In this document: in pieces, positions 1,935 through 64,000 of the stretch
Layout of the letters: the number at the start of each line of letters is the position of its first letter
Position numbering within the stretch: the first letter of the stretch is position 1
Origin: Thermodesulfobacteriota bacterium
Lineage (GTDB): Bacteria > Desulfobacterota_D > UBA1144 > Nemesobacterales > UBA2774
Assembly: GCA_041753155.1 (NCBI GenBank)
Contig: JBGSVA010000021.1
Coordinates: 1,012-65,011, forward strand
DNA: 64,000 bases
Direction of reading: 5' to 3'
The notes under the pieces: generated by a model
What the model was told of the DNA's origin: nothing
Databases searched by the model: none
Seen by the model: only the letters and a program-made list of their open reading frames with translations
Program-made: the position numbers and the translations under genes

Positions 1935-3014
1935 TCAGTCGACTACTACGCTTGATTCCACTTTACCCGTCTCCGGATCGTATATGTATTCTTCGCCCAG
2001 CGGATGAGCAGGGAAATCCCCTGTGGTCTCGAGCTCTATGAATTTTCTGAGCTCATCCAGGCTCCTCGGAAAATCTCCATATAGCTTTTTATATCTGGCG
2101 GACTTCGCGTTCAGGAATACAATCGCCTCCTGAATTCTCCGCTTCGAGAGATCGGAGCTTTTTACAGCTTCTATCTTGGGCGCGAGAATGAACTTGCCGC
2201 CCATAGGCGCTTCCGGAATTCCGTTTTTGACTACGCCCGACCGAGCCAAATCTTCAGGCGACGACGGCAGCCTTCCATAACGCTTTACGTACTCCTTTAA
2301 CGATTCCGTCAGCTTATCTTCGAGAGCCATCGTGTCTATCTCGTTTATATTCCTGAGCGCGAATTCCCTCCTCCCATCGCTCGGGCTCGTTTCGTAAATG
2401 ATTTCCCAGATCTTCCTCGAAAGCTCGTTGTTTCCTCCTCTCGCGTGAGCGGACGCAGCCATGCCCGCCATCGAGGCCTTTCTCAGCGGGGAGAGGCCCG
2501 GTTTTTCGGAGGCCTCCCTGAAGAGCTCTGCGGCTTTTTCGTAATCTTTCGGATAAAAATAGTAGATGAATGCCTCTTCGAGAGGCAGCTTGTAATTTTC
2601 GGGGTTGTTGCTCCTTCCCTTATCGAATAGCTCGATCCCCTTCATTGTTTCCCCGAGCCCGAATGGCGGGGGCTCAGCGAGGAACGTGCCCCCGTACCTG
2701 TATGCGTTCACGAACTTCGGGTCGAGGTCCGTGATGATATCGAAGTAGTGATAAAGCAGGTCGGGATTCTGCTCATTAGATTTCTTACTGCCGAAGTATT
2801 GGAGCGCCCTAAGCCAGTATATGTCCGCGAGGAGATCGTTGTAGCCTAGAGACAGCTTCTTAAGGGACGAAGACGATATGTAAAGGCTCTCTTCGACTGA
2901 CCGGAATCTGCCCCTTATCTCGTCGATCCTGATCTGAAACGGGATCGATACCGCAACGAGAGCGGCCAGCATGACAAGGGCGATCGTAGGTTTTATCGCG
3001 GTTCTGACTGACAT
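1935..3014 (-). CDS. membrane-anchored periplasmic protein downstream of an ABC-2 exporter (possible accessory component, PilG-like by position)
   Basis: One N-terminal transmembrane helix (IALVMLAALVAVSIPF) followed by a soluble repeat-like domain. The start lies 4 bp after the permease stop, so the two are translationally coupled. Confidence 0.35.
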   Translation of the reverse strand: MSVRTAIKPTIALVMLAALVAVSIPFQIRIDEIRGRFRSVEESLYISSSSLKKLSLGYNDLLADIYWLRALQYFGSKKSNEQNPDLLYHYFDIITDLDPKFVNAYRYGGTFLAEPPPFGLGETMKGIELFDKGRSNNPENYKLPLEEAFIYYFYPKDYEKAAELFREASEKPGLSPLRKASMAGMAASAHARGGNNELSRKIWEIIYETSPSDGRREFALRNINEIDTMALEDKLTESLKEYVKRYGRLPSSPEDLARSGVVKNGIPEAPMGGKFILAPKIEAVKSSDLSKRRIQEAIVFLNAKSARYKKLYGDFPRSLDELRKFIELETTGDFPAHPLGEEYIYDPETGKVESSVVVD

Positions 3015-4878: not shown

Positions 4879-5478
4879 TTATCCGTCGCAGGCCGGGTCA
4901 TCGACGCCCGATTCAAACGTGCCGGATTGCCCGCTGCCTTGTGTGGAAACCGTACATTTTATGACTTTGTCTGTGAACGCGGAAAAATCTTTCCTGCCGT
5001 TTACCCTCGCGCTTGTCATAGAAGCTTCCCATCCGAAGTCTCCTTTGAGCGACTGAGCGTCGGTGCCGGCATCAGCGCTCCATGAGAGGCAGTACCCGGC
5101 TTTGGGATCGGCGCAATCGGCAGAGCTCGAAGGGCTCCCGTCGCTTGAAATCGCATCTTCGAATGTAGAATCTATTAGAGCGTCCTCTGGATCGCTTGTT
5201 CCTGATGGGTCCCTGAGTGTTCCCGCAGCGCCGAGCGCTCCGATTAAGTTTGTAAAGTCCCTGTCACCGTTATCGTCCAGGTCCTGTTCGAAATACTCGT
5301 ACTCGGCGTCTTTCAGGGTCTGCAGGGCCTTCCGCGCGTTAACCTCGTTTGACGAGATACGGGCTTTTAACAGGTTCGGTATAGCGATTGCGAGGAGAAT
5401 ACCTATAATCGCCGCAACTACAAGCAGCTCGATTAAGGTAAAGCCTTTTTCGAGCGTTCTTTTTTGCCGATTGATCAT
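4879..5478 (-). CDS. type IV pilin (prepilin with class III leader), paralog 1
   Basis: Leader ends ...KG, then FTLIELLVVAAIIGILLAIAIPN (prepilin peptidase site G|F, with Glu at +5). The variable C-terminal region is Cys-rich. Confidence 0.8.
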   Translation of the reverse strand: MINRQKRTLEKGFTLIELLVVAAIIGILLAIAIPNLLKARISSNEVNARKALQTLKDAEYEYFEQDLDDNGDRDFTNLIGALGAAGTLRDPSGTSDPEDALIDSTFEDAISSDGSPSSSADCADPKAGYCLSWSADAGTDAQSLKGDFGWEASMTSARVNGRKDFSAFTDKVIKCTVSTQGSGQSGTFESGVDDPACDG

Positions 5479-5506
5479 ATTCCTGCACTCTTCTTATTGA
5501 ATAAAT

Positions 5507-5523
5507 CGCAATATACATACCAA
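5507..5523 (-). promoter_or_regulatory. sigma-54 (-24/-12) promoter for pilin paralog 1
   Basis: Minus-strand sequence TGGTATG-TATA-TTGCG (GG-N10-GC) lies about 28 nt upstream of the ATG. Confidence 0.6.
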
Positions 5524-5642
5524 AACAAGATAAAAGCAGTTCTCAGGTGTACTGTTGCAACTTGCCGGTATTATTGCGATTAATGTTAATCGGAACGATT
5601 TAGATGAACTGGTTCTTTATGCCGATGATATTTCGCTCACCA

Positions 5643-5676
5643 AATGTGACAATATTTGTCGCCCAAATGCAATTTG
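5643..5676. promoter_or_regulatory. paired palindromes (GACAA-TAT-TTGTC and CAAAT-GCA-ATTTG) about 130 bp upstream of the pilin-1 sigma-54 promoter; candidate enhancer-binding-protein site
   Basis: The palindromes are seen directly in the sequence. The core AATGTGACAAT(A/T)TTTGTC recurs upstream of pilin 2. Confidence 0.5.
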
Positions 5677-5756
5677 TGTTCAGCGAATGGATCCATGTCG
5701 AGGAAGCGCTATATATGCTTATGATAAAATCGCGGAAAGGAATGTTAGTACTTCGG

Positions 5757-5800
5757 TAAAAAAAATGCGGCGGATTTGTTTACAAACCCGCCGCTTGTTA
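5757..5800 (-). terminator. intrinsic terminator downstream of pilin paralog 2
   Basis: Minus-strand GCGGCGGGTTTGTAAACAAATCCGCCGC hairpin followed by TTTTTTTT, about 45 nt after the stop codon. Confidence 0.7.
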
Positions 5801-5844
5801 ATTATCCTGAGAGTTACAAAACCTGATTTAAAGCTTAAAACAAA

Positions 5845-6426
5845 TTAGTCGCATCCGGCCGTTGTACGAATGGACTCGAAATTTCCCGGAGTTCCTGCTG
5901 TTCCGACTGAGCTGACCGTACATCTTATAGCACCGTCGCCGTAGACTGAGAAGTCCCTTCTGCCGGTCTTGTTGTAGCTGGTCATACTGGCCTGCCAGGC
6001 GATATCGTCGAGGTCGTCTCCTTCGGCGATTTCGGCGGAATCCCAGGTTAAACAGTAGCCGGCTTTGGGGTCGGTACAGCAGCTCCCGTCGGTCGAGCCG
6101 GCTGCACACACAGCACTATCAAAGCTACTGTCAACAAGCGCGTCCTCTTCTAAACCAGTGCCTTCCGGATCGCGAAGCATGGTCATATTGCTGGTGAAAT
6201 TCCTCTCGCCGTCGTCGTTGAGGTCCTGCTCGAAATACATGCCTTCCGCGTCCCTGAGCGTCTGCATGGACTTCCTGGCATTGGCTTCGTTCGCCGACAT
6301 TCTCGCCTTTATAAGGTTAGGTATAGCGATCGCGAGCAGTATGCCGATGATTGCCGCTACTACGAGAAGTTCGATAAGAGTGAAACCCTTCTCTCCCTTT
6401 TTTACCTTCTTTAATGTGCTTAACAT
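5845..6426 (-). CDS. type IV pilin (prepilin), paralog 2
   Basis: Leader MLSTLKKVKKGEKG|FTLIELLVVAAIIGILLAIAIPN. The first ~60 aa are near-identical to paralog 1 and the C-terminus has diverged. Confidence 0.8.
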   Translation of the reverse strand: MLSTLKKVKKGEKGFTLIELLVVAAIIGILLAIAIPNLIKARMSANEANARKSMQTLRDAEGMYFEQDLNDDGERNFTSNMTMLRDPEGTGLEEDALVDSSFDSAVCAAGSTDGSCCTDPKAGYCLTWDSAEIAEGDDLDDIAWQASMTSYNKTGRRDFSVYGDGAIRCTVSSVGTAGTPGNFESIRTTAGCD

Positions 6427-8824: not shown

Positions 8825-9625
8825 TTAGATAACGGTCACGTCTCCCGTTATTATTTTGACCATGCTCTCGTCCTCTTTTCTAATCAGCAGGTGCCCCTCG
8901 CCGTCTATCCCGGTTGCGGTACCTTCGATTACCTTTCCGTCTTCCGTGCTGACCCTGACGCGCTTATTAAATCCGCCCCACCTTTCTGTCCATTCCTTGA
9001 TTATAGAGGACTTTCCCCGCCTGTTGAACGTTTGATACCACGATTCGAGCTCGTAGAGGAGGTCTCCCGCGAATTTAGCCCTGTCGACGTCTCCGCCGAG
9101 ATTCTCTCTGATGGACGTTGCGGATTTCGCGGTCTCTCCCAGCTCGCGCCTCATTTGTTCTCTGGTCATGTTTATATTAACCCCGATCCCGACAATGATA
9201 TAATCGACCCTGTCGCCCCTGGGCTCCATTTCGGTGAGCACGCCCGCAGCCTTTTTGCCCTCGATCAGCACGTCGTTCGGCCATTTTATGGACGTGTTCC
9301 GCACGCCTGTTTTTTTAATCGTTTCCGTGATCGCAATAGAGGCGAGGAGTGTGAGGAGCGGCGATTCCCATGCCGGTATGGAGGGCCTGAACAGTACCGA
9401 CATGTAGAGGTTCATACCGGGCGGCGAGACCTATTTCCGTCCGAGCCTTCCCTTCCCGCTAGTCTGCTTGTCCGCGATGACCGTAGTCCCTTCGGAGGCG
9501 CCGCTCTGGGCGAGCCTCGATAAAACGGTGTTCGTGGACCCGGTCTCATCGAAGTAGTGGATGACTTTGCCGAACGTCTCGGTTTTGAGGAGACCGTTTA
9601 ATTTTCGTATCATCGGCGATGTCAT
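8825..9625 (-). pseudogene. birA: biotin--[acetyl-CoA-carboxylase] ligase (group I, no HTH) interrupted by one in-frame TAG
   Basis: The N-terminal fragment (9431..9625) ends ...QTSGKGRLGRK-TAG. The same frame continues VSPPGMNLYMSVLFRP... through 8825. The TAG (9431-9433) sits where the BirA GRxGRxW motif has an invariant Trp (TGG). Confidence 0.7.
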
Positions 9626-14037: not shown

Positions 14038-14709
14038 ATGAGTAGAAATTTATACATGGCCCTGCAATCTTCCTTTTTCGTTTTGGTGCTCTATTCCGTG
14101 TCCTGCGCTACTATCACCGTCAACGTGTATTTCCCGGCGGAAGAGGTAAGGGAGGCTTATTCCAACCTCGAGGAAGAATTCCTGAAGCAGGGTGAAAACG
14201 GTAGTTCCGGCACCGAGAAAAAGCAGCCCGACGCCAATGCACCCGCCGCCACGCCTCCACCGCAGAGCATGAGAAAGTATCCGGACCAGCCGGCACTTTC
14301 GTCAGAGAAGAAATATTTAGTCATCAAAAAGGAAATTTCCCTCGACTTCAGCGAATATGCATGGGCTCAGGGAAACATAGCCCAGCAGATCACTCAGAAA
14401 ATACGCAGCATGCCCGATGTCGTCCAAGCCTATAAACGGAGGTCCCAGCGGCTGGGCGAAATAAACCAGATGCTGTCCCAGGGCCTTGTCGTGGAAGGCA
14501 ACCAGGGCCTGCTTATACAGAAGGGGAGCCTCACCCCGGGTCAGACCCAGGCCTTCAGCGCGGAGAACACCGACCGTCAGGTGATTATAAGAGGGATGGC
14601 CAAAGCGATAGTCGAGATTAATAACATAGACCCCACGCCCGAGAATATCGACAAGGTGCTGCCTGAGGCTGCGAGACAATTCGCGAGCGTGAGACAGAGC
14701 GAGAGGTAA
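14038..14709 (+). CDS. periplasmic DUF1318 (YdbL-like) protein with an N-terminal extension
   Basis: Signal peptide. The C-terminal AENTDRQVIIRGMA motif matches the DUF1318 AENxDR signature. Its position directly after the AsmA-like gene supports the call. Confidence 0.55.
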   Translation: MSRNLYMALQSSFFVLVLYSVSCATITVNVYFPAEEVREAYSNLEEEFLKQGENGSSGTEKKQPDANAPAATPPPQSMRKYPDQPALSSEKKYLVIKKEISLDFSEYAWAQGNIAQQITQKIRSMPDVVQAYKRRSQRLGEINQMLSQGLVVEGNQGLLIQKGSLTPGQTQAFSAENTDRQVIIRGMAKAIVEINNIDPTPENIDKVLPEAARQFASVRQSER

Positions 14710-16456: not shown

Positions 16457-17476
16457 ATGAGCAAGCGAGAGATCGTAATAATTCCGGGGGACGGCATCGG
16501 TCCCGAGATAACGGCGGCGGTAAAAAAGGTTATTGAGGCATCCGGTGCCGAGATCACGTGGATCGAGCGAGTGGCCGGCCTCGCCGCGCTCGAAAAGGGT
16601 CTGGACGTGCTTCCGGACGAGACCCTCGAAGCTATAAAGGAGCACAAGGTCGCGTTGAAGGGCCCCTGCACCACCCCGATAGGCGAAGGTTTCACGTCGG
16701 TGAACGTAAAGCTCAGGAAGACGCTCGACCTCTACGCAGCCGTGAGGCCCGTAAGGAACCTTCCGGGGGTTATAACACGGTTCAGGAACGTGGACATAGT
16801 GATAATACGCGAGAACACGGAAGGCCTTTACAGCGGGGTAGAGAACATCATTACCCCGGGCGTCGTGATGAGCATGAAGGTGGCGACCGAGAAGGCGTGC
16901 ACCCGCATTTCGCACTGGGCGTTCGAATACGCGCGCCACCGTCACAGGAAAAAGGTCACTGTTCTCCACAAAGCCAACATCATGAAATTGACGGACGGTC
17001 TCTTTATCAGAAAATCGAAGGAAGCGAGCAAGGAATACGGCGATATCCGGTACGAAGAGATGATAATCGACGCGGGGTGTATGAAGCTCGTTCAGGACCC
17101 GGCCCTTTTCGATATGCTTCTTCTCGAGAACCTATACGGGGATTTGATCAGCGACCTCTGTGCGGGCCTGGTCGGCGGGTTAGGGGTCGTACCCGGAGCG
17201 AACATAGGCGACAGGGAAGCCGTCTTCGAGGCAGTCCACGGCTCAGCCCCCGATATAGCGGGCAAGGGCATCGCGAACCCTCTCGCGCTCCTCATGTCTG
17301 GTGTGATGATGCTCAACCACCTGGCGGATACGGAGGGGCGGGAAGACTTCCGCGCCTGCGCCGTGAGGATAAAGAACGCGTATGACAGCGCCCTTCAGGA
17401 GGGCGACAGGACGCGCGACCTGGGCGGAAAGCTCGGCACAATGGAATTCGCCGACGCGCTGATCAGGAGAATTTAA
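16457..17476 (+). CDS. isocitrate/isopropylmalate dehydrogenase family enzyme (likely NAD-dependent isocitrate dehydrogenase)
   Basis: MSKREIVIIPGDGIGPEI... with IRENTEGLYSG and GSAPDIAGKGIANP motifs. The start is reassigned to the internal ATG at 16457; the track ORF carries an N-terminal extension. Confidence 0.8.
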   Translation: MSKREIVIIPGDGIGPEITAAVKKVIEASGAEITWIERVAGLAALEKGLDVLPDETLEAIKEHKVALKGPCTTPIGEGFTSVNVKLRKTLDLYAAVRPVRNLPGVITRFRNVDIVIIRENTEGLYSGVENIITPGVVMSMKVATEKACTRISHWAFEYARHRHRKKVTVLHKANIMKLTDGLFIRKSKEASKEYGDIRYEEMIIDAGCMKLVQDPALFDMLLLENLYGDLISDLCAGLVGGLGVVPGANIGDREAVFEAVHGSAPDIAGKGIANPLALLMSGVMMLNHLADTEGREDFRACAVRIKNAYDSALQEGDRTRDLGGKLGTMEFADALIRRI

Positions 17477-17532
17477 GGCGTGCTCGTGTGATTCCGGAGA
17501 CAATGCGGGAGGGGCACTGATCTAGCGGCGGG

Positions 17533-18522
17533 CTAAATGTTCTCCTCGATCACCCTCAGGAAGTTCCCGCCCATTATCTTTCTCACCCTTTCCTCGGAGT
17601 ATCCTTTCTCCAGGAAATAACCGGCTATCTTCGGCAGGTCCGCGATCTTTCTCAGGTCTTCGGGGAAGTCCTCGATCCTGGCTCCGTCCATATCGCTCCC
17701 TATACCTACGTGGTCCTCGCCGCAAAGATTGACTATGTAATCCGCATGTTTGAACACGTCTTCCACCGTGGGTGTTTTATCCCCCGTCTTAAGGAATTGA
17801 TTATAGAGCACTATTCCGATGACGCCCCCCCTCTCCGAGATAGCGAGTAGCTGGCCGTCTTTCAGGTTACGCGGGTGATCCGTGAGCGATCTCGCGTTCG
17901 AGTGCGATGCTATTGGAATGAGACTCGTCAGCCCTATCGCTTCCCGGAACCCCTTTTCATTTATATGAGAGAGGTCGAGCGTGACACGGAGCCCGTTCAT
18001 TCTCTTTATCAGCTCCCTCCCCTCGTCCGTGAGTCCTTCTTCGGTCTCGTTCCCCGAGGCGAATCGGTTCTTATCGTTCCACGTAAGCCCTATCAGCCTC
18101 ACTCCACGCTCATAGAATTCCCCAAGCTTATCGGGGCCTTCTATCGGGTCCGCGCCCTCCATGAGCGTAAGGAAGCCGATCCTTCTGTTGGAGCCTGTAC
18201 TCAGGAGGTCCTCACGCGTCTTTATCTGAAAGACTTCGTCTTTATGTTCTCTGTAAATCCTGTCGTACGTGTCGAACTGCTTGAGCGCCGATTCGAGCGT
18301 CTTTTCCGGCTTGTGTTTCGGGTGTACGAATACGGTGTTGAATACGAGGCCGATCCCGGCTTCCTTCAACCAGGGGAGTGTGAGCATGCAGGGGACGGCG
18401 GGGCTTACAAAGTCCCTGTCGTAGTAGTTTAAATGGAACGCGATGTCCTCGTGCGCATCGAGAATGAATAAATCCCTGAGCATTTTTTCCCGCCCGTTCC
18501 TTACCCCTGTATCCGTATCCAA
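17533..18522 (-). CDS. membrane dipeptidase, peptidase M19 (renal-dipeptidase) family
   Basis: N-terminal DAHEDIAF metal-binding motif, with a ~330-aa TIM-barrel amidohydrolase-like layout. Confidence 0.75.
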   Translation of the reverse strand: MDTDTGVRNGREKMLRDLFILDAHEDIAFHLNYYDRDFVSPAVPCMLTLPWLKEAGIGLVFNTVFVHPKHKPEKTLESALKQFDTYDRIYREHKDEVFQIKTREDLLSTGSNRRIGFLTLMEGADPIEGPDKLGEFYERGVRLIGLTWNDKNRFASGNETEEGLTDEGRELIKRMNGLRVTLDLSHINEKGFREAIGLTSLIPIASHSNARSLTDHPRNLKDGQLLAISERGGVIGIVLYNQFLKTGDKTPTVEDVFKHADYIVNLCGEDHVGIGSDMDGARIEDFPEDLRKIADLPKIAGYFLEKGYSEERVRKIMGGNFLRVIEENI

Positions 18523-18575
18523 TTGTCGACCGTCCCTGTTAATTTCATTTTCTTCGCGTCTTTGTGTCTTCCCTT

Positions 18576-19817
18576 CTATATATAAAACCCCATGCTCGCG
18601 TAGCTGACGACCGATCCGGTGTCAGGCTCGAGCGCCTGCCCGTAATCGAGCAGCTTCCCCCGTTCCGCATCGATCGTCGCGAGGGTCGCGTATATCGGGG
18701 AAAGCCCGCATACCTTCCGCCAGTCCTTCTCTCCCTCGACCGACCTGTAAAACCCCTCCGGGTCCATCTTCTCGCCGAAGGAGAGGCTCAGCATGTCTCT
18801 TTCCTTTATCTTGCCGAGCGTGAGGTCGTTTACGGGTTCTTTATCCCCGAACTTAAGCCCCACGTGGGCCATGTCGGCACCCGCGATTATAAAAATATTA
18901 TCGCCCATATCCCTTACGATCCCCGAGACCGCTTCGAGGAAGCCCGAGATCGTTTCGTCCTCTGCCGGGGACCTGCCCTCCCTGACCAGTCTGTAAAATG
19001 AGTTGCAGAGTACGGGCACGATCCTGAATTTCTTTTTTCCGTTCATAATGTGCTGGAGGAAGGCGACCTGGAACTCTATCGAATGCTCGGTGCGGTGCGA
19101 GATCTCGCCCTCATACAAATCCCATTCGCACGCAGTTTCAAGCTTCTCGATTATATTTCTGTCCGTTTCAGCTTCTCCGAGAGGGGTCATGAAGTTCTTT
19201 CTGGTCAGGATGAACGGGTTTTCCACCTCCGCGTAGTGGGACGTGCCGAAGATGAGGAACGTATCCGCTTCGTTTTCCCGGAGTAGCTCCCTGTATGCGA
19301 GCGCGTACGATACGCCGCCCCTCCCGTAGTCGATATGAGGGGATATAAGCCCCCTTAATTTTCCGGTGGCTTCTCTTTGGGGCCCGGACTCCTCCGCCTT
19401 GCTGAAAAAGGCTTGAAACCATCTTTCGAGCTCCCTCGGGTCGCCCGGATATGAGAGGCCCGCGTGGCTCGGCTCCCTCGTCCCCGCTTCGCGGAAACCG
19501 GATTCTATCCGGTCCTTATAGTCCCTGAAATTTTCGCTTTCGAGAAAGAGGGCCTCGTCGAGCTGCTTTATTAAATTCTCTATTTCGTCTGACAAGACCA
19601 GCTCTCCGAACCTCTCCATGACGAGCGACTGTATATCTTGTACAGTCTTCGTCCCGTCGAAGAGGCTCAATATCCTGAGGGTCTCGATCGAGATGGCGAG
19701 GATATTATCCGACAGGTTCTGAGGGTCCCTCAGGCATATGATCCTTTCCCCTTCGACCTCGGCGGGAATAACCTCGACGTACCTCATTTTAGGGTATTCA
19801 ATATTATTATTCGTCAT
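18576..19817 (-). CDS. fusion protein: N-terminal PqqD/RRE-like peptide-binding domain plus C-terminal Memo-family (AmmeMemoRadiSam system protein B-like) domain
   Basis: Residues ~15-100 contain LRILSLFDGTKTVQDIQSLVMERFG...SDEIENLIKQLDEALFLE, which matches PqqD's LELVDGRRDVAAIIAELNERF...DDVVEFL. The remainder carries the Memo motifs HAGLSYPG, SPHIDYGRGG, FGTSH and EHSIEFQ. The start overlaps the hyuB stop as ATGA. Confidence 0.6.
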   Translation of the reverse strand: MTNNNIEYPKMRYVEVIPAEVEGERIICLRDPQNLSDNILAISIETLRILSLFDGTKTVQDIQSLVMERFGELVLSDEIENLIKQLDEALFLESENFRDYKDRIESGFREAGTREPSHAGLSYPGDPRELERWFQAFFSKAEESGPQREATGKLRGLISPHIDYGRGGVSYALAYRELLRENEADTFLIFGTSHYAEVENPFILTRKNFMTPLGEAETDRNIIEKLETACEWDLYEGEISHRTEHSIEFQVAFLQHIMNGKKKFRIVPVLCNSFYRLVREGRSPAEDETISGFLEAVSGIVRDMGDNIFIIAGADMAHVGLKFGDKEPVNDLTLGKIKERDMLSLSFGEKMDPEGFYRSVEGEKDWRKVCGLSPIYATLATIDAERGKLLDYGQALEPDTGSVVSYASMGFYI

Positions 19818-21382
19818 GGGTTTTTTGGTTTACCCCACCCGCCCCCGCCTGGTGTCCTGATCTCGAGCACGTCGCCTTTCCTTACCGTGAACGTGGACTT
19901 GGGAGGTATAACGGATGATTTCCCCTTACTCAATAGAATGTTCCTGCCTTTTTTCCCCCGCCCACCGCCTTGAATGCCGTAGGGCGCAGACTTCCTTCGC
20001 TCGGTTATCAGAGAGACGGTCGCGTCCGTGAGGAACCTGTATTTCCTGACTATGCCGTCTCCCCCCCTGAACCTGCCCCTGCCTCCGCTCCCTTTCCGCA
20101 CGGAATAGGAATCGATCATAACCGGAAGCTCCCTCTCGAGCGCCTCGATCGGTGTGTTGAGGGTATTGGTCATGTGGGTCTGAACAGCGTTCACGCCGTC
20201 CTTCCCGAACCTCCCTCCCATGCCCCCTGCGATCGTTTCGTAGTAGGCGAAGTTCTTCCCGGTCCCGGGGTTCACCCCTCCGAACGTGGTATTGCTCATC
20301 GTACCCGCGCTCGCGGCCGGTATCTTCCCGGGGACTGCTTTGGAGAGCGCCCCGAATACTATATCGACGACGCGCTGCGAGGTCTCGACGTTCCCCCCGA
20401 CCACGGCCGCCGGGTATTCGGCATTGAGTATAGAACCCTTTTCGGCCTTTATGTCTATTACTCTCAGCGGGCCCGAGTTGAGCGGCATTCCTTCGGGCGC
20501 CAGGCACTGAAATACATAAACGACAGCAGCGGTGGTCACGCTGAGGGGCGTGTTTAAACAACCCCTCACCCTCCCGGACGACCCACTGAAATCCACGACC
20601 GCTTTATCCCCCTTTATCGTTATCGACACCCTGAGGGGTATATCCCTCGTGCCCGCCCCGTCGTCGTCGAGGACGTCCTCGAACCTGTAAACCCCGTCGG
20701 GGATATTCCTTATCGCCCCTCTCATTATTTTTTCACTATAGCGGAGGAGCTCGTCACCCGCCTCTTTAACCTTTTTTAACGAGTACTTCGCGGTGACCTC
20801 ATTTAACCTTTTTATACCGAGCTCGAGAGAGCCCAGCTGCGCCCTCAGGTCTCCTTCCCTCTCTTCCGGGTCTCGCGTTGCGGACAGTATGCCTTCAAAG
20901 AGGGACCTGTTCAGCTTCCCTTTCTTGTATAGTCTCGACGGGGGGATCAATATCCCTTCTTCGTGTATCGATGTGGAAAGCGGCATCGAGCCCGGCGTGA
21001 GGCCCCCCATGTCCGCGTGGTGGGCGCGGGAGGCGACGAAGAATTCGAGCCCGCCGTCCGCGAATACCGGGGCTATGCATGTGACGTCAGGCAGGTGTGT
21101 CCCCCCTCTGAACGGGTCGTTAAGTATGAAGACGTCGCCCTCGGCTATTCCCGGCTCTCCGATTATCGCTTTCACGGCGAAGCTCATGGAGCCCAGGTGT
21201 ACGGGAATGTGGGCCGCCTGCGCGATCATCTCTCCCGAGGCTTTGAATATTGCGCAGGACAGGTCCCTCCGCTCCTTTATATTGGGCGAGAACCCCGCGC
21301 GTATGAGGACGACCCCCATTTCCTCGGCGACCGAGCTGAGCGCGTTCTGAAATATTTCGAGTTCGAATGGGCTAAGGGGCAT
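19814..21382 (-). CDS. hydantoinase B/oxoprolinase (HyuB) family protein, with no HyuA partner nearby
   Basis: 522 aa with the HyuB signature SPNIKERRDLSCAIF...AHIPVHLGSM. Confidence 0.8.
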   Translation of the reverse strand: MPLSPFELEIFQNALSSVAEEMGVVLIRAGFSPNIKERRDLSCAIFKASGEMIAQAAHIPVHLGSMSFAVKAIIGEPGIAEGDVFILNDPFRGGTHLPDVTCIAPVFADGGLEFFVASRAHHADMGGLTPGSMPLSTSIHEEGILIPPSRLYKKGKLNRSLFEGILSATRDPEEREGDLRAQLGSLELGIKRLNEVTAKYSLKKVKEAGDELLRYSEKIMRGAIRNIPDGVYRFEDVLDDDGAGTRDIPLRVSITIKGDKAVVDFSGSSGRVRGCLNTPLSVTTAAVVYVFQCLAPEGMPLNSGPLRVIDIKAEKGSILNAEYPAAVVGGNVETSQRVVDIVFGALSKAVPGKIPAASAGTMSNTTFGGVNPGTGKNFAYYETIAGGMGGRFGKDGVNAVQTHMTNTLNTPIEALERELPVMIDSYSVRKGSGGRGRFRGGDGIVRKYRFLTDATVSLITERRKSAPYGIQGGGRGKKGRNILLSKGKSSVIPPKSTFTVRKGDVLEIRTPGGGGWGKPKNP

Positions 21383-21445
21383 CGGATAATCTCAACACTG
21401 CGTTTCCCGGCAGCGTTTGCGGGTCTCTAGTCGAGGAGTCGATTA

Positions 21446-21907
21446 TTATTCGGGCGCGGGCGCGGAAGGCGTCAGGGTTTCGAGGTTCGAGTATCTGCAG
21501 AGCCCGGAGTCGTAGTACCTGACTTCGGTATTTTCCCTGAGATCGGCCTTAGGGCTTCCCGGAATTATGTGACTGCCGTTCTCACAGTCCTGTACTACTT
21601 TTAAAAACGGTACCGGCGCCGGGTCTCCCGGCCCGTATTTGCCCTTTATATTCTTTGCGACTTTCACTGTAGCCGTACATTTCGATACCATCTCGGGCAT
21701 AAAACCTGTTGAACCTTCATCGGCGGGTCTGCATTCTTCGGAATCGTAAGGCTTACCGCATTCGATTTTAATGACCGTGCCCTCTACGGCGTAATCCGAG
21801 CTATTGAGGAGCTCATCTTCCGAGCAAGGGGGCGGGATAGAGTAGACGCGTACCGCTCCAATCGTGAATAGAGTAAAAATGAGTGGTATTATTAACTTGT
21901 TTTTCAC
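21446..21907 (-). CDS. secreted Cys-rich hypothetical protein
   Basis: Signal peptide, about 8 Cys in the mature ~130 aa, and a PAPE tail. It lies 64 bp upstream of hyuB on the same strand. Confidence 0.45.
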   Translation of the reverse strand: MKNKLIIPLIFTLFTIGAVRVYSIPPPCSEDELLNSSDYAVEGTVIKIECGKPYDSEECRPADEGSTGFMPEMVSKCTATVKVAKNIKGKYGPGDPAPVPFLKVVQDCENGSHIIPGSPKADLRENTEVRYYDSGLCRYSNLETLTPSAPAPE

Positions 21908-21998
21908 CCTGATTATACTAATGTATTGTGCTTTTATTCATTGTCAAACGAAATCTTGAGAGCGGAGAAATTGAGTGCGCAAGGGGATAATAAATAGA

Positions 21999-22949
21999 AT
22001 GAAAATTTTGGTCACCGGCGCCGCCGGGTTTATAGGCTCACACCTTGCCGAAAGGCTCTTGAAAGAAGGTTATGCGGTCAAGGGATTGGACTCGTTTCTC
22101 GATTATTATCCGCGCAGGATTAAAGAGCACAACGTCAGGGGTCTCAACGGGAAGAAGGGGTTCGAGTTCATTGAAGGAGATATGCTCGACCTCGATTTAG
22201 TGAAGCTACTCGACGGCGTAGACGCGGTGTTCCATCAGGCTGCGATCGCGGGGGTGAGGTCGAGCTGGGGCGCCAGGTTCGACGAATACGTCAGGAACAA
22301 CATACTCGGGACGCAGCTCCTTCTCGAGGCCTCCAGGGACAGAGAGCTTAAGAGGTTCGTATACGCATCGTCCTCGTCCGTTTACGGCGATTCCGACGAG
22401 CTCCCGATAAAGGAGGCCTCCCCTGTGAGGCCAGTCTCGCCTTACGGCGTTACGAAGCTCTCAGGCGAGCAGCTCGCGTATCTCTATTACAAGGGCTACG
22501 GCGTCCCGGTCGTTTCCCTCAGATATTTCACCGTCTACGGGCCGCGTCAGCGCCCGGACATGGCCTTTCACAAGTTCCTGAGGGCGGTCATCACAGGGGG
22601 GGAGATAGAGGTCTACGGCACGGGGGAGCAGACGAGGGACTTCACATACATCGGGGACGCCGTCGAAGCCAACCTCGCCGCGTTCTCAAGCGGCGTGAAC
22701 GGCGAGGCGTACAACGTAGGCGGAGGCAGCAGGATAAGGCTCATCGAATGCATAAGGTTAATCGAGGAAATATCCGGGAAGAAGGCCAACCTCAGGTTTA
22801 CGGACCCCCAAAGAGGTGACGCGAAACACACCTACGCCGACGTCTCGAAGGCTAAAAAAGATTTCGGGTATTCTCCCGTGTTCGGCATACGGGAAGGCCT
22901 CACTGAGCACTACAATTGGCTAAAGAAGAATATGGAGCTTTACAGGTAG
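21999..22949 (+). CDS. NAD-dependent sugar-nucleotide epimerase/dehydratase (SDR family)
   Basis: MKILVTGAAGFIGSH Rossmann motif and YxxxK (YGVTK). The start is set at the ATG at 21999, preceded by an AAGGGG Shine-Dalgarno. Confidence 0.8.
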   Translation: MKILVTGAAGFIGSHLAERLLKEGYAVKGLDSFLDYYPRRIKEHNVRGLNGKKGFEFIEGDMLDLDLVKLLDGVDAVFHQAAIAGVRSSWGARFDEYVRNNILGTQLLLEASRDRELKRFVYASSSSVYGDSDELPIKEASPVRPVSPYGVTKLSGEQLAYLYYKGYGVPVVSLRYFTVYGPRQRPDMAFHKFLRAVITGGEIEVYGTGEQTRDFTYIGDAVEANLAAFSSGVNGEAYNVGGGSRIRLIECIRLIEEISGKKANLRFTDPQRGDAKHTYADVSKAKKDFGYSPVFGIREGLTEHYNWLKKNMELYR

Positions 22950-52631: not shown

Positions 52632-53882
52632 ATGGGAAAGCTGATACTGACTGCCGAAACGGTCCTGCCTGTTTCCTCGAAACCTTTGAAAAACGCTTCC
52701 GTACTGATCTCCGGCGGAAAGATCAGAGAGATCGGCAAATCCGCCGCGCTCAGGAAACGCTATAAAGGCGTGATCGAAAGGGATTTAGGAAACGGAATAC
52801 TCCTGCCGGGGTTCGTCAATGCCCATACACATCTCGAGCTCGGATGGATGTTAAGGAGGCTCCGCAGCTTCGGGGGCTTTACGGGCTGGCTCGGGCAGAT
52901 AATAAAGGAAAAGAGGGCGGGTGTGGCGGACGGTGAAATAGCCGAGTCGGTGGAGGAAGGAATAAGAACGAACATACGCTCGGGGGTTACGACCGTAGGG
53001 GAGATATCCTCGTACGGCGGTATAGATATACCGCTACTTAAATCGTCGGGGCTGAGGACTGTGCTCTTCAGAGAAATCCTCGACAGCAATGAAGGTGCCG
53101 CGGATTTCTCGTCTCTCGAAAAAGGGGCGCTCTTCGAGGAGAGGCTCTTCCCGCATTCACCCTATTCGTGCAGTCCCGGGGTGCTGAAAAAATCGCTCAG
53201 GTCTCACAGGAAAAACGGCGTCCCCCTCGGTATCCACCTCGCGGAGAGCGCGGATGAGGTGAGGTTCCTGAGGGGTGAAGTAAACAATATAGAAAAGAAG
53301 ATATTCCCGCTTATAAACAAGGCCCCCTTTAAAAAGCATTCGGCAGACACGCCTGTCTCATATTTAAGGAGAGCGGGCCTCTTAGACGGCGTGAGGATTA
53401 CACTCGTTCACATGGTGCAGGTGAGCGGGGAAGAGGCGCGGGAGCTCTGCGAGCTCGACGCGGCTATCGTCCTTTGCCCGAGGAGCAATTTTTTTCTTCA
53501 GGTGGGCGCCCCGCCCGTAAAGGAATATGCGAAGTTCAACAGGATGGGTATCGGCACGGACGGCCTATCAAGCAACTACAACCTCAATTTTTTTGAAGAG
53601 ATGAGGTTCCTCCATCTCCTCATGTCGCAGTCCGAGGGGCAGCGGGCGGCATATGTTACCGTATACGCTGCGACACTCGGGGGGGCAAGGGCGCTGTACA
53701 TTGAGGATAAGACCGGCAGCATTGAGCCCGGCAAAGAGGCCGACCTGATATTCCTCAAAAACGGCAGCGGATCGGGCGACCCTTACCTCTCGGTCATTTC
53801 ATCAGACGCGCGGGACGTCGGAATGGTCATGGTCCGGGGTAATATTATATATGCCGGGAATGCCGCGCGCCCCGGCAAATAG
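52632..53882 (+). CDS. amidohydrolase, ATZ/TRZ (nucleoside/aminofutalosine deaminase-like) family
   Basis: PGFVNAHTHLEL metal-binding motif. About 416 aa. Confidence 0.7.
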   Translation: MGKLILTAETVLPVSSKPLKNASVLISGGKIREIGKSAALRKRYKGVIERDLGNGILLPGFVNAHTHLELGWMLRRLRSFGGFTGWLGQIIKEKRAGVADGEIAESVEEGIRTNIRSGVTTVGEISSYGGIDIPLLKSSGLRTVLFREILDSNEGAADFSSLEKGALFEERLFPHSPYSCSPGVLKKSLRSHRKNGVPLGIHLAESADEVRFLRGEVNNIEKKIFPLINKAPFKKHSADTPVSYLRRAGLLDGVRITLVHMVQVSGEEARELCELDAAIVLCPRSNFFLQVGAPPVKEYAKFNRMGIGTDGLSSNYNLNFFEEMRFLHLLMSQSEGQRAAYVTVYAATLGGARALYIEDKTGSIEPGKEADLIFLKNGSGSGDPYLSVISSDARDVGMVMVRGNIIYAGNAARPGK

Positions 53883-53884
53883 CT

Positions 53885-54931
53885 ATGTCCGGCAAGATCA
53901 ATAAAATCTTCGTCTACGGGACGCTCCAGCGCGGGGAAGAGAGGAGTGGCTTCATGCGGGGCTGCAAGCTCTCGGAGATACTCGAAGTGCCGGGAAGGCT
54001 CTACGATACGGGACAGGGTTACCCGGCCGCTATATTCAACGACGGATCGGACCGGGCAGTGTCGGGCGAGCTCTATACCATGGAAGACCCGCCTTCCAAG
54101 CTCGAAGAGCTCGACAGGGTCGAGAGGACTCTATCCGGGTTCTTCGTAAGGTCGAGGATCAAATGCCCCCATTCGGAATTTTATTGCTACGAGGCGGGAC
54201 CGCTTCTGAAAGAAACAGCTACCGACCGGAACAGGATCATAAGCGGGAGCTGGAGGACGCACTCCTCGCTCGCATACACCGACCCGGTAGATTTCGCACT
54301 CAGGTTCGAGACGCACTTAAAAGACAGTTACAGGGAGCATCCGGGCGAAGACTCGGATGGGATACATTATATAAGGGGACGCGTCCCGGTCTTGGTCACG
54401 GCGCCCCACGCGACGGCGCACGTGCGAATGGGCAAATTGAAGAGGCAGGAATTCTATACGGGCGCGCTCGCCGTCCTCCTTCATTCGGTGACGGGGTGTC
54501 ATGCGCTCTACGTCGGCCGGCTGTCTTCACTCGACCCTAATTACACGGACGAATCCCCGTTCAAAGCGAAGCTATCCGAGATAGCCGGGAGAATCGGGCT
54601 CGAATTTCTGATCGACGTTCACGGGACCGGTTCGGAAAGGCCCGGGGACGTCTTTCCGGGCGTAGGCACGAACGGCGAGTTCCTGAACGGCAGGCCCGGA
54701 TCATTCGGCGAGCTCGGTCAGGCGGCCCAATCGAACGGCATCTCGCTCGGGCCTACGGATGTCTTCCCCGCGGCGAGGCAGATGACAGTGACAAGGTTTG
54801 CAGCTACCAAACTGAGCATACCCTCTATGCAGCTCGAAATAAACCGGAACCTGAGGCGGCCCGAAACTGAGCCCGGGGATTTCATAAAGCTCGTAAATTT
54901 TCTCAAGGACTTTATCGGGCGACTTTGTTGA
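53885..54931 (+). CDS. two-domain protein: N-terminal gamma-glutamylcyclotransferase (AIG2/GGCT)-like, C-terminal N-formylglutamate-amidohydrolase (FGase)-like
   Basis: The N-terminus IFVYGTLQRGE...GELY is a GGCT signature. The C-terminus has VLVTAPHAT and LIDVHGTG, resembling the FGase motifs (SCEHA / IDLHSM). The start lies 3 nt after the upstream stop. Confidence 0.5.
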   Translation: MSGKINKIFVYGTLQRGEERSGFMRGCKLSEILEVPGRLYDTGQGYPAAIFNDGSDRAVSGELYTMEDPPSKLEELDRVERTLSGFFVRSRIKCPHSEFYCYEAGPLLKETATDRNRIISGSWRTHSSLAYTDPVDFALRFETHLKDSYREHPGEDSDGIHYIRGRVPVLVTAPHATAHVRMGKLKRQEFYTGALAVLLHSVTGCHALYVGRLSSLDPNYTDESPFKAKLSEIAGRIGLEFLIDVHGTGSERPGDVFPGVGTNGEFLNGRPGSFGELGQAAQSNGISLGPTDVFPAARQMTVTRFAATKLSIPSMQLEINRNLRRPETEPGDFIKLVNFLKDFIGRLC

Positions 54932-60227: not shown

Positions 60228-61061
60228 CTAGGCTTCCAGTATGTCGAGCCTCGGCTCTTCTTTTATGATCCCTTTATCGTAAGCCCTGTTAAATAGATAC
60301 TTGAGCGCGGCCTTCCCTTTCCCCCCGAGGTCCAGCGTGTATTTGTTGACGTACATCAGGACGAATTTCTCTCCCACGTCCTCGCCTATGCCCCTGCCGT
60401 ATTTCATCGCATATTCGAGAGCTTCTTTTTTGTGGGCGAGTCCGTACTCGATGCTCTCCTTATGTACCCTGAGGACTTCTTTCTGAAGCTCCTCTCCAAT
60501 GTCCCTCTTAACGACGTTAAGTCCTAGTGGGAGCGGGAGCGTGGTCTCAATTTGCCACTGCTCGCCCAGATCGAGCACAAGCTCGAGGTCGTAGTCCTTG
60601 TAAGTAAGCTGTCCCTCGTGGATGATGAGGCCGGTCTCAATGTCGCCCCTCGCGACTGCGGGCATTATCTCGTCGAAAGGCATCTCCACCGGTATAAAGC
60701 CGTCTGAGTAAATGCTCAGGAGCAGGAACGCGGTCGTGAGCTTCCCGGGGACACCTATCTCCTTCCCATTGAGGTCGTCGGTCGGCACGCTCGATACCAC
60801 GATAGGGCCGTACCCCTCTCCCATGCTCGCGCCGCAGGACATGATTCTGTAATCGTCCTGTACTTTCAGATATCCGTGCGCGGAGATCGCGGTAGTTTCA
60901 AGCTCTTTATTGAGCGCGCGCTTGTTCAGGGATTGAATGTCCTCTATGACGTGCTCGAAATCGATTTTGTCCGAAGTCACTTTGCCTGAGGCTATGCCGT
61001 AAAACATGAAAGCGTCGTCGGGGTCGGGGCTGTGTCCGAGTCTCATCTTTATCTTGGTCAA
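60228..61061 (-). CDS. mqnD: 1,4-dihydroxy-6-naphthoate synthase (futalosine pathway)
   Basis: LGHSPDPDDAFMFYG and GLIIHEGQLTY closely match MqnD (LGFSPCPNDTFIFY / GLIIHESRFTY). Confidence 0.75.
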   Translation of the reverse strand: MTKIKMRLGHSPDPDDAFMFYGIASGKVTSDKIDFEHVIEDIQSLNKRALNKELETTAISAHGYLKVQDDYRIMSCGASMGEGYGPIVVSSVPTDDLNGKEIGVPGKLTTAFLLLSIYSDGFIPVEMPFDEIMPAVARGDIETGLIIHEGQLTYKDYDLELVLDLGEQWQIETTLPLPLGLNVVKRDIGEELQKEVLRVHKESIEYGLAHKKEALEYAMKYGRGIGEDVGEKFVLMYVNKYTLDLGGKGKAALKYLFNRAYDKGIIKEEPRLDILEA

Positions 61062-61085
61062 TCTGCGTCCTCCAGTTTCTTCAAG

Positions 61086-61892
61086 CTATTGTGAATATAA
61101 TTTTATGCGGGAAATCTTTTCTGCCTCGCCGAGCCGGGAGAGGTATTCGCTGTATCTGCCGATCGCTTCGATCTCCTTTTCACCGAGGTCATACTTTATC
61201 CTTTCTGTTAAATATTTATGGCACATGCCCTCATCGATTCCCGTCCTCATCGATTCGAGCTTTGCTATTTTACCCACTATGCCGAGCCCGTAGTCTTTGG
61301 ATTTATGGAGCGCGTCCAGGTTCCGTCCGAGCTCCACGCCTTCGTTTACGGCGAAGACGGCATACACAAACGGGAGCCCGGTCTCTCCGGTCCAGATCTC
61401 CCCGAGGTCATAAACGTCATAGCCCACGGGAGGGGAGTAGGTCGTCTCGAGGCCGGTGTCGCCAATTATCATCCCCGCATCGACGTCTTCCAGGAAATCA
61501 CCGTCCGCGGCCCGCGGCAGATAGACCGGCGAAAGGCTATGGAATGTTTCGAGTATTATCCTCAATAGTGCAGTCGAGCTCTGCGACCTCCTGTCGACGG
61601 CGACCCTCTTAATGTCCGTGATCTCGCCCTTCGACAGGAGCACGACACTGTCCACCTTCCCGTAAGAAGAGATAGAGATTCCGGGTACCGCGGAGTACGA
61701 GTTTCTCCTGAGGAATTCCGCGACGGGTATGAGCCCCAAGTCTATCGCTTTTCCGGAGAGCATCAGCGAGAGATCGGAAGGGGGCGTTAGCGTTATATCG
61801 AAGTCGTGTTCTACGAGACCGTTCTCGATCGCGAACGTCAGGGGTTTTGCATTCATAAACGATACCGAGCCCAGCTTTATCAATCTTTGCAT
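61086..61892 (-). CDS. mqnA: chorismate dehydratase (futalosine pathway)
   Basis: The KLGSVSFMNAKPL...IDLGLIPVAEF layout matches MqnA. It is tandem with mqnD. Confidence 0.65.
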   Translation of the reverse strand: MQRLIKLGSVSFMNAKPLTFAIENGLVEHDFDITLTPPSDLSLMLSGKAIDLGLIPVAEFLRRNSYSAVPGISISSYGKVDSVVLLSKGEITDIKRVAVDRRSQSSTALLRIILETFHSLSPVYLPRAADGDFLEDVDAGMIIGDTGLETTYSPPVGYDVYDLGEIWTGETGLPFVYAVFAVNEGVELGRNLDALHKSKDYGLGIVGKIAKLESMRTGIDEGMCHKYLTERIKYDLGEKEIEAIGRYSEYLSRLGEAEKISRIKLYSQ

Positions 61893-63047: not shown

Positions 63048-63081
63048 TCAGTCACCCCGCCCCGCGTCAGCGGCACGCCAC

Positions 63082-63843: not shown

Positions 63844-64000
63844 GAGTACCTTTCTATAGCGTCTTTAAGGTTTATTGTGCCTGTATAGATCGACTTCCCG
63901 AGTATCACGCCGTATAGGCCTATTTGTTCGAGCGTTTTCAATTTATCCAGGTCGTCTGTGGTTGCGATACCCCCGGACGCGATGACCGGAAGCGGGGACG
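63840..64000 (-). CDS. hisA: HisA (ProFAR isomerase), C-terminal end (gene continues beyond window)
   Basis: The reverse-strand frame ends ...[48 protein letters not shown]. Its stop overlaps the hisF start. Confidence 0.7.

Follow-up and report, generated by a model that had tools for sequence, protein, structure and literature searches.

An RRE–Memo fusion protein of a known, uncharacterised family in a Dadabacteria-specific gene string

Introduction

Do four neighbouring minus-strand genes of a Dadabacteria genome, one of which encodes an RRE-like domain fused to a Memo domain, form a new peptide-processing system? The first-pass annotation of the 64,000-nucleotide stretch of DNA analysed here (the window) suggested that they might. 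An RRE recognises the leader of its precursor peptide, usually the product of a nearby gene, and RREs are known to be divergent in sequence. The Memo family, to which human MEMO1 and the "AmmeMemoRadiSam protein B" of bacteria and archaea belong, has no agreed enzymatic function, and that of MEMO1 is debated. We find that the locus does not hold as a candidate new "system". It is an ordinary lineage-specific operon with a member of a known, uncharacterised enzyme family, and the RRE–Memo protein is the sole unusual member of the string.

Results

The string and its features, in the order of transcription, are as follows.

21920–21947, minus strand: promoter-like site, TTGACA-16-TACATT, 10/12, a consensus match only
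21446–21907, minus strand: Cys-rich protein, 153 aa (ORF list)
19814–21382, minus strand: HyuB, 522 aa (ORF list and Pfam Hydantoinase_B)
18576–19817, minus strand: RRE–Memo fusion protein, 413 aa (ORF list)
19482–19817, minus strand: RRE-like winged-helix domain of the fusion, residues 1–112
18576–19481, minus strand: Memo/LigB-fold metal domain of the fusion, residues 113–413 plus the stop codon
17533–18522, minus strand: M19 dipeptidase (ORF call with a TTG start; Pfam Peptidase_M19)

The ORFs and their Pfam matches bear out the minus-strand string as first described, including the overlap of HyuB with the fusion gene, where the junction reads ...CCC ATG ACG and ATGA serves as stop and start. 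The spacing of "54 bp" between the fusion and M19 genes stands, as 53 nt, for the called TTG start but not for the likelier ATG, which leaves 92 nt. That ATG, at 18483, is probably the true start, to judge from the sequence; it gives a protein of 316 aa that matches homologues of 316–323 aa. In a consensus scan of the minus strand, the only good promoter-like site for the string was the one upstream of the Cys-rich gene, with none elsewhere within the string. The intergenic gaps hold no minus-strand terminator-like site, and the two such sites that were found both lie inside the HyuB coding sequence. The four genes thus probably form a single transcription unit. Rfam returned no matches over 17000–22500, and the string includes no transporter. 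The search for a precursor-like ORF proposed in the first-pass annotation yielded neither such an ORF nor a conserved short ORF in 17.4–22.0 kb, where the gaps are too short to hold one.

The fusion itself is real. Its C-terminal part matches Pfam Memo (E=3.8e-45, residues 115–409), as annotated, and the profile match, the fold and the conserved metal-site residues all place it in the Memo (PF01875)/MEMO1 family. Profile searches of the N-terminal domain against the PDB gave weak matches only (PKMT2, E=0.005; the PaaA RRE region, E=0.45), and the fold was therefore tested by structure. AF2 models (pLDDT 93.8 for the isolated domain, 88.2 for the full-length fusion) show a βββ-ααα winged helix followed by a linker helix, with strands at residues 15–21, 24–30 and 39–42 and helices at 44–50, 59–70 and 76–88. 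This is the topology of an RRE of about 80–90 residues, and the closest structural matches are the leader-binding RREs TfuB1, TbiB1 and PbtF, which were solved with peptides. The proposed PqqD/RRE likeness therefore stands at the level of fold; a Pfam PqqD match above threshold was not obtained, as PF05402 gave E=0.041 and 14.7 bits over residues 48–89 against a gathering score of 23.4. TIGR03859 reached 14.8 bits against a cutoff of 46, and PqqD was matched at E≤0.01 in 6 of 82 relatives (best 2.2e-4). That this domain binds peptide is suggested by its fold.

An alternative is that the domain is merely an RRE-like winged helix serving oligomerisation, regulation or protein contact, attached to a housekeeping Memo enzyme whose substrate is a folded protein or some small molecule, in an operon of unrelated metabolic genes. 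The subthreshold PqqD match is compatible with this, as is the presence of the same domain in a 986-aa TPR protein lacking Memo. The likeness to peptide-bound RREs speaks against it, as does the strong conservation of the domain across the fusion family, the β3/α3 region included. Human MEMO1 itself, moreover, is reported to accommodate a peptide in the cleft of its active site (Qiu and colleagues, 2008).

The fusion belongs to a large family of 993 clusters at 50% identity (E≤1e-3), in which nearly all full-length members have 400–430 aa and the Memo domain was present in all 82 sampled. Taxon labels span several phyla (Dadabacteria/Thermodesulfobacteriota, Brocadiia, Abyssubacteria and Methylomirabilia, besides "Deltaproteobacteria" and "Pseudomonadota" MAGs); the window's fusion protein itself had no exact-sequence match. 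The architecture, initially put forward as undescribed, is already on record: the RRE-Finder update (PMC12710340; mSystems, November 2025) describes fusions of RREs to Memo-like proteins (PF01875), with model RREFam044 Memo_RRE in its Table S1. It states that AlphaFold predicts the RRE–Memo architecture with high confidence and calls the fusion "unprecedented in RiPPs"; the text searched gives no substrate, chemistry or neighbourhood for the class. By architecture and fold, the window's protein is a member of this multi-phylum family catalogued as Memo_RRE, and the classification of the domain as an RRE by those authors also counts against a winged helix of unrelated function.

HyuB, of the Hydantoinase_B/oxoprolinase family, matches Pfam Hydantoinase_B, the catalytic subunit, over its full length (E=5.5e-207, 688.8 bits). 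It has no equivalog-level match, scoring 261.9 bits against a cutoff of 1000 for NCBIfam caprolactamase beta and 110.9 against 1500 for ApcD, and its best matches among solved structures are to the fused N-methylhydantoinase 7hk5 and to caprolactamase beta 6yra_B. Families missing from the window were sought by Pfam on most ORFs of at least 200 aa outside the cluster, a few flanking genes being identified instead through syntenic homologues. The scanned ORFs contained no Hydantoinase_A match, in agreement with the annotation of HyuB as lacking a HyuA partner, and no AMMECR1, radical SAM or YcaO match, also as annotated. Hydantoinase_A was likewise missing from the Pfam-annotated clade loci L012, L096, L097 and L098 and from the scanned intervening genes of L007 and L008; the remaining clade loci were compared solely with the proteins of this window. 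Since no HyuA-type subunit lies nearby, ATP use by HyuB, and with it the "ATP-dependent" chemistry first attributed to the locus, is not to be assumed. The M19 protein is also full length (Peptidase_M19, E=4.2e-84, 282.9 bits, profile positions 3–319 of 319). Relatives of solved structure (E down to 3e-35) include renal dipeptidase and GliJ besides M19 dipeptidases of bacteria; it has no signal peptide and was classed as cytoplasmic.

Cys-Gly dipeptidases are found among the M19 enzymes, and 5-oxoprolinase among those of the HyuA/B type. These activities underlie a second proposal of the first-pass annotation, a gamma-glutamyl-cycle-like module in which HyuB would be a 5-oxoprolinase B subunit and M19 a Cys-Gly dipeptidase, both tied to a GGCT-like gene at 53885. 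The domain exists, as GGACT (PF06094, E=3e-15, 53885–54931), but its gene lies 32 kb away, side by side with that of an aminofutalosine-deaminase-family hydrolase and close to menaquinone (futalosine) genes; only HyuB and M19 are adjacent. The lack of HyuA among the scanned window ORFs and the Pfam-scanned clade loci and genes would leave ATP-dependent ring opening without an ATPase, HyuB falls below every equivalog cutoff, and no Pxp, GGT or glutathione-synthesis genes were seen. The module would also leave the RRE–Memo gene unexplained, and we consider it extremely unlikely.

The Cys-rich protein carries the N-terminal Sec-type signal-peptide-like segment that had been annotated, has six cysteines rather than the eight first counted, and matched no family in profile searches. 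Its gene is an optional member of the string, detected by tblastn in 11 of 22 Dadabacteria loci. It was undetected in L001, L006–L009, L016, L019–L021, L096 and L097, in some of which the upstream flank is too short for a decision, as well as in the Memo-less locus L098 and in all distant loci. Its Sec-type signal peptide, the failure to detect it in half of the clade loci and its absence from the distant ones led us to reject this protein as a candidate substrate of the RRE.

Could HyuB, the RRE–Memo protein and M19 nonetheless act in one pathway confined to Dadabacteria? In such a pathway a peptide- or lactam-type substrate would first be modified and then trimmed: Memo would act on the peptide recruited by the RRE, the part of HyuB would be to open or close an amide or lactam, and a dipeptide or amino-acid product would be set free by M19. 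Across the clade sample of 22 Dadabacteria loci, M19 lies downstream of the fusion in every one and HyuB upstream of it in 19 of the 20 whose upstream stretch is long enough to judge. The genes share a strand, HyuB and the fusion overlap or are at most 10 nt apart in 14 of 19 loci, and the gap between fusion and M19 is 1–150 nt in 20 of 22. In L096 and L007 the three genes stay within 6–10 kb although both flanks differ from those of the window, and in the divergent L021 fusion and M19 are 1 nt apart. The ATGA coupling, this persistence within 10 kb and the 1-nt spacing argue for something beyond chance adjacency, perhaps a functional link within Dadabacteria, and the gaps free of promoter- and terminator-like sites point the same way.

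Other features of the clade weigh against a single pathway. The whole neighbourhood is syntenic (SucD, epimerase, YicC, DUF4416, IsoDH, YhdP), so the adjacency of the trio carries little information. L021 lacks HyuB, L098 keeps HyuB and M19 with an AhpD/CMD-family gene in place of the fusion, and in L007 and L096 2.3–3.7 kb of unrelated genes (PNPOx, glyoxalase, DJ-1, ABATE) are inserted between the members. Neither a precursor ORF near the string nor a HyuA ATPase subunit was found. Outside Dadabacteria the trio is absent: among 78 distant loci with a full-length fusion homologue (37–46% identity, about 587 kb of flanks), none had HyuB or M19 in the flanks. Beyond the clade the three genes are therefore not conserved as a unit, which was the refuting condition named in the first-pass annotation, and the "cassette" first proposed cannot be upheld. 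We regard a shared pathway as unlikely.

The immediate neighbours of the distant RRE–Memo genes vary and look like housekeeping genes (Lon 8, M20 5, PCYCGC 4, UPF0047 3, otherwise singletons), and the five distant contexts annotated with Pfam all differ (MnmE, MreBCD, arginine biosynthesis, a RecQ-like helicase and DUF1285). Two apparent associations were rejected. That with Lon is restricted to one lineage (Lon 78–90% identical). A link of RRE–Memo to two non-homologous dipeptidase families, M19 and M20, fails as the M20 neighbours are ArgE/DapE-type deacylases from one lineage (70–80% identical), which makes the M20 association weak. A nearby precursor, typical of an RRE, was likewise missing: no conserved short ORF is present here and no small neighbour recurs across about 100 loci. 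Such precursor-free, housekeeping-like contexts, differing by lineage, would also fit a non-RiPP role of the RRE-like domain; weighed against the structural evidence, a mere winged helix on a housekeeping enzyme seems rather improbable.

Discussion

With moderate confidence, we favour the reading that this is a Dadabacteria-specific co-directional string, probably transcribed as one, that opens with a secreted Cys-containing protein and in which RRE–Memo comes from a known family and the orphan HyuB-type protein and the cytoplasmic M19 are lineage-specific neighbours. It is not a new conserved peptide-processing system, the adjacency of the trio being limited to Dadabacteria. In the mechanism that we propose for the fusion, the N-terminal RRE would dock part of a peptide or protein chain for the MEMO1-type His/His/Cys metal centre of the C-terminal domain, which would carry out a metal-dependent, probably redox, step; the gene for this substrate would lie elsewhere in the genome. 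Neither HyuB nor M19 would be an obligate partner of RRE–Memo; at most the two may serve as an accessory pathway, specific to Dadabacteria, that salvages peptides or lactams.

A large bacterial Memo subfamily with a peptide-docking domain suggests a peptide or a protein tail as the substrate. Since RRE–Memo is a widespread singleton without local RiPP partners, this substrate is to be sought genome-wide, and the two hydrolase-type genes tightly linked to RRE–Memo in Dadabacteria offer a modest experimental handle. A bolder proposal is that RRE–Memo is a peptide-directed metalloenzyme and that Dadabacteria, with their orphan HyuB and M19, make or salvage a small product, either an amide or an amino-acid derivative, out of a carrier peptide in three steps. 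If true, a defined chemistry would be available for the Memo family for the first time, the carrier peptide encoded elsewhere would follow a scaffold-peptide logic, and the tight HyuB–fusion overlap and the persistent fusion–M19 pairing would reflect the pathway; we think this very improbable.

A literature search on HyuB without HyuA, on Dadabacteria hydantoinase and on AmmeMemoRadiSam returned nothing relevant. The HyuA/HyuB enzymes (N-methylhydantoinase 7hk5, caprolactamase 6yra, and the acetone and acetophenone carboxylases) share the full-length Hydantoinase_B with the window protein, which differs in having no HyuA adjacent or fused and no equivalog-level match. M19 dipeptidases such as renal dipeptidase, the Sco3058-type enzymes and GliJ share the full-length Peptidase_M19, whereas the window M19 has neither a signal peptide nor a membrane anchor.

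The RREs of RiPP pathways (PqqD, TfuB1, TbiB1, PbtF and TglI of TglHI) contrast with the present one, which has no precursor, protease, transporter or other RiPP gene nearby and whose gene occurs in various phyla as a singleton amid housekeeping genes. With no precursor, no transporter in the string and no trio at the 78 distant loci, the locus does not qualify as a RiPP biosynthetic gene cluster.

Public sources call the fusion protein AmmeMemoRadiSam system protein B, and the window's protein scores 129.6 bits against a cutoff of 26 for that family (TIGR04336). The defining partners of that system are AMMECR1 (protein A) and a radical SAM enzyme. Neither was found in the 64-kb window, and AMMECR1 occurred at 1 of 103 loci, as a Memo–AMMECR1 fusion (L051). 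The name over-annotates the RRE–Memo subfamily. Human MEMO1 (PDB 7kq8, 3bcz) differs in lacking the RRE, the bacterial protein having about 110 extra N-terminal residues. The closest counterpart is Memo_RRE (RREFam044), described in PMC12710340 as an N-terminal RRE joined to a Memo-like PF01875 domain. The architecture here is the same, and the HyuB and M19 neighbours set the locus apart from that class as a peculiarity of Dadabacteria.

Organization of the four-gene string

ORF calling and Pfam searches confirmed the string of four minus-strand genes described in the first-pass annotation, apart from a cysteine count and one spacing. Its features are as follows.

21947-21920, minus: promoter-like site upstream of the Cys-rich gene, the only strong one on this strand
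21446-21907, minus: 153-aa secreted protein with 6 Cys (ORF call; no family match)
19814-21382, minus: 522-aa HyuB-type protein (Pfam Hydantoinase_B, E=5.5e-207)
18576-19817, minus: 413-aa RRE-Memo fusion (Pfam Memo, E=3.8e-45, residues 115-409)
17533-18522, minus: M19 dipeptidase (Pfam Peptidase_M19, E=4.2e-84)

The Cys-rich protein contains six cysteines rather than the eight first counted. Successive genes are separated by 63 nt, a 4-nt overlap and 53 nt; the overlap is as originally described, with the HyuB stop and the fusion start both within ATGA (…CCC ATG ACG…). The last spacing, earlier given as 54 bp, is 53 nt with a TTG start of M19 and widens to 92 nt with an ATG at 18483, which appears the more likely start and agrees with homologues of 316-323 aa. 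Minus-strand promoter- or terminator-like sites were not found in the intergenic gaps of the string; two minus-strand terminator-like matches both lie inside HyuB, a number within chance expectation. Neither these gaps nor the 56-nt convergent gap downstream of M19 has room for a precursor gene, and an Rfam search returned no match.

Against NCBIfam, HyuB reached 262 bits with the caprolactamase beta model (cutoff 1000) and had no equivalog, and the fusion scored 129.6 bits with TIGR04336, 'AmmeMemoRadiSam protein B'. Among solved structures, HyuB is closest to the fused N-methylhydantoinase 7hk5 and to caprolactamase beta, each of which works with a HyuA-type ATPase part. A family scan gave no match to Hydantoinase_A, AMMECR1, radical SAM or YcaO in any window ORF scanned, as the first reading had it. 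Since the HyuA-type part is missing, the ATP-dependent chemistry proposed for this cluster should not be assumed.

An RRE-like domain and a Memo domain in the fusion

The N-terminus of the fusion, proposed to be PqqD/RRE-like, matched Pfam PqqD below threshold (E=0.041; 14.7 bits vs 23.4). The βββ-ααα order is the defining topology of RREs. AlphaFold2 models of the fusion (48 homologues; pLDDT 88, pTM 0.86) and of the N-terminal domain alone (pLDDT 93.8) both place strands at β15-21, β24-30 and β39-42 and helices at α44-50, α59-70 and α76-88, followed by a linker helix. A Foldseek search with the isolated domain ranked TruD and TbiB1 at the top, with weak E-values of about 0.02. In a structural comparison, lower-ranking matches to the N-terminal part were ThcOx, LynD, MibB, MccB, TglI, TbtB and NisB. 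Despite the Pfam failure, the RRE fold is confirmed at the level of predicted structure, because the models show this topology together with structural matches to RREs.

The Memo-family assignment of the remainder also held. H161, H194, E244, H245, D315 and H318 are invariant in 82 diverse relatives (31-47% identity), and at least 90% of them retain C370; in a profile alignment the conserved residues fall in the MEMO1 motifs PHAGY, GPSHH, EHSIE, SSDFCHWG and ICGRHP. Because the metal-site residues are conserved and so placed, a working metal site is likely, and we infer the chemistry of the domain.

RRE-Memo is a widespread singleton gene

The first reading knew of no described fusion of this type. 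Table S1 of the RRE-Finder update (PMC12710340) already lists a model for them, RREFam044 Memo_RRE, so the fusion is catalogued and not new; the passages searched assign it no function. When 1.84 billion cluster representatives were scanned in full by HMMER with fusion residues 1-113, 993 clusters matched at E<=1e-3, and 304 passed the stricter E<=1e-10. Full-length matches are nearly all 400-430 aa. Memo is present in all 82 sampled members, and PqqD is the sole recurrent N-terminal Pfam match (6/82 at E<=0.01). Among the source labels are Dadabacteria/Thermodesulfobacteriota, Candidatus Brocadiia, Abyssubacteria, Methylomirabilia, and 'Deltaproteobacteria' and 'Pseudomonadota' MAGs. One long protein, P0227 (986 aa, ENA metagenome), carries the same RRE-like domain at residues 2-105 (38% identity) and weak TPR matches without Memo; the N-terminal domain is therefore not exclusive to Memo.

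A family-alignment scan of metagenomes yielded 80 loci with full-length matches, and further loci were added by exact look-up. The distant set comprised 78 loci (fusion homologue 37-46% identical; ~587 kb of flanks; 32 of them flanked by 2 kb or more on each side). Neither HyuB nor M19 was found in their flanks (0/78; tblastn E<=1e-5), so the trio of HyuB, fusion and M19, proposed as a cassette and indeed kept in Dadabacteria, is not a conserved unit outside that clade. The immediate-neighbour Pfam census was heterogeneous (Lon protease 8, M20 peptidase 5, PCYCGC 4, UPF0047 3, M19 1, the rest singletons), and five Pfam-annotated long-contig contexts were all unlike (MnmE; MreBCD/PBP2; arginine biosynthesis; a RecQ-like helicase; DUF1285). 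AMMECR1 was nearby in just 1 of 103 loci. Given these three observations, RRE-Memo is a widespread singleton gene rather than the core of a conserved cluster.

Recurrent neighbours were as follows.

Lon, same strand, immediately upstream in 8 of 11 loci: L028, L029, L032-L034, L038, L039, L041
Lon, 2-4 genes upstream: L037, L046, L053
M20 deacylase, 3' end overlapping or abutting the RRE-Memo start, high-GC lineage: L079:6757-7989, L063:4246-5472, L061:6761-7978, L090:2-517
DUF1285-like gene: L103:7239-7697 (Methylomirabilia MAG), L079:9212-9706, also L060, L064, L090, L093, L094

The Lon loci all belong to a single lineage (Lon 78-90% identical), in which UPF0047 and metallophosphoesterase genes often lie downstream. 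The four clear M20 loci, encoding ArgE/DapE-type deacylases, likewise represent one lineage (70-80% identical). The DUF1285-like gene (150-165 aa) overlaps or closely trails the RRE-Memo 3' end, often overlapping its stop; the copies of six metagenome loci are 68-76% identical to that of L079, and a PCYCGC-motif protein is often nearby. It is a recurrent, putative RRE-Memo partner.

In the single AMMECR1-bearing locus (L051:3059-5781), the gene for a canonical Memo-AMMECR1 fusion (478 aa; Memo E=4e-70, AMMECR1 E=4e-61) reaches 4 nt into the RRE-Memo start. This arrangement hints that the subfamily is a paralogue functionally related to AmmeMemo proteins.

The trio is kept in Dadabacteria and its members are separable

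Synteny puts the window in Candidatus Dadabacteria. Among 22 clade loci (fusion at least 51% identical), M19 lies downstream of the fusion in all 22 and HyuB upstream in 19 of the 20 with enough upstream sequence. In 14/19, HyuB and the fusion overlap or are no more than 10 nt apart, and in 20/22 the fusion is separated from M19 by 1-150 nt. Adjacency by itself carries little weight here because the entire neighbourhood is conserved (TGT, DapB, DUF4416, YicC, SucD, epimerase, IsoDH, YhdP). The Cys-rich gene was detected in 11 of the 22. At its position in L097 (spacer 5420-6010) there is just an 83-aa ORF that begins similarly (…HPVTCMEEELFRTSNYAIS…) and may be a decayed copy.

Variant loci show that the members are separable. 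In L021 (51% identity, other upstream genes) the fusion and M19 are 1 nt apart without HyuB. L096 and L007 have flanks unlike those in the window, and in both of them HyuB is split from the fusion by 2.3-3.7 kb that encodes unrelated proteins (PNPOx-like, glyoxalase, DJ-1, ABATE/CGNR regulator); in L007 another 3 kb separates the fusion from M19. L098 (6001-10533), a Dadabacteria-type locus with SucD and epimerase upstream, lacks RRE-Memo and carries, in this order, HyuB, a 176-aa AhpD/CMD-family (YciW-related) gene, M19 and a PBP4B-like beta-lactamase-family gene; HyuB and M19 can thus stay together without the fusion. M19 shows some tendency to stay with its neighbours beyond pure synteny.

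HyuB, RRE-Memo and M19 could instead form a genuine pathway of three enzymes found only in Dadabacteria. The ATGA coupling and loci L096 and L021 favour this reading; the absence of the fusion from L098, the insertions between members and the lack of a precursor speak against it, and we consider it rather unlikely.

Other genes of the window

A gamma-glutamyl-cycle-like module had been suggested as well, partly from a GGCT-like gene. That gene is real: a GGACT/AIG2-like domain (E=3e-15) forms the N-terminal part of a 348-aa protein (53885-54931) whose C-terminal 220 residues have no family match. It starts 3 nt past an aminofutalosine-deaminase-family amidohydrolase gene (pair at 52632-54931), near MqnA/MqnD-like genes at 60228-61892, and lends the module no support; we consider such a module highly improbable. 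ORFs 1935-3014, 8891-9523, 14038-14709 and 63040-63888 (210-359 aa) had no Pfam match at E<=0.01; ORF 14038-14709 is conserved beside the YhdP-like gene in Dadabacteria loci.

Interpretation

On balance we lean towards a lineage-specific operon whose sole unusual gene belongs to the catalogued Memo_RRE family, with HyuB and M19 as Dadabacteria-specific neighbours. A peptide, or a segment of a protein, from a gene elsewhere probably docks on the RRE-Memo protein and is acted on at its MEMO1-type metal centre; that the RRE-like domain has a role not involving peptides seems unlikely. Of the peptide-processing cassette first envisaged, the fusion is real, but it was already described, and conservation of the cassette as a unit does not extend beyond one clade.
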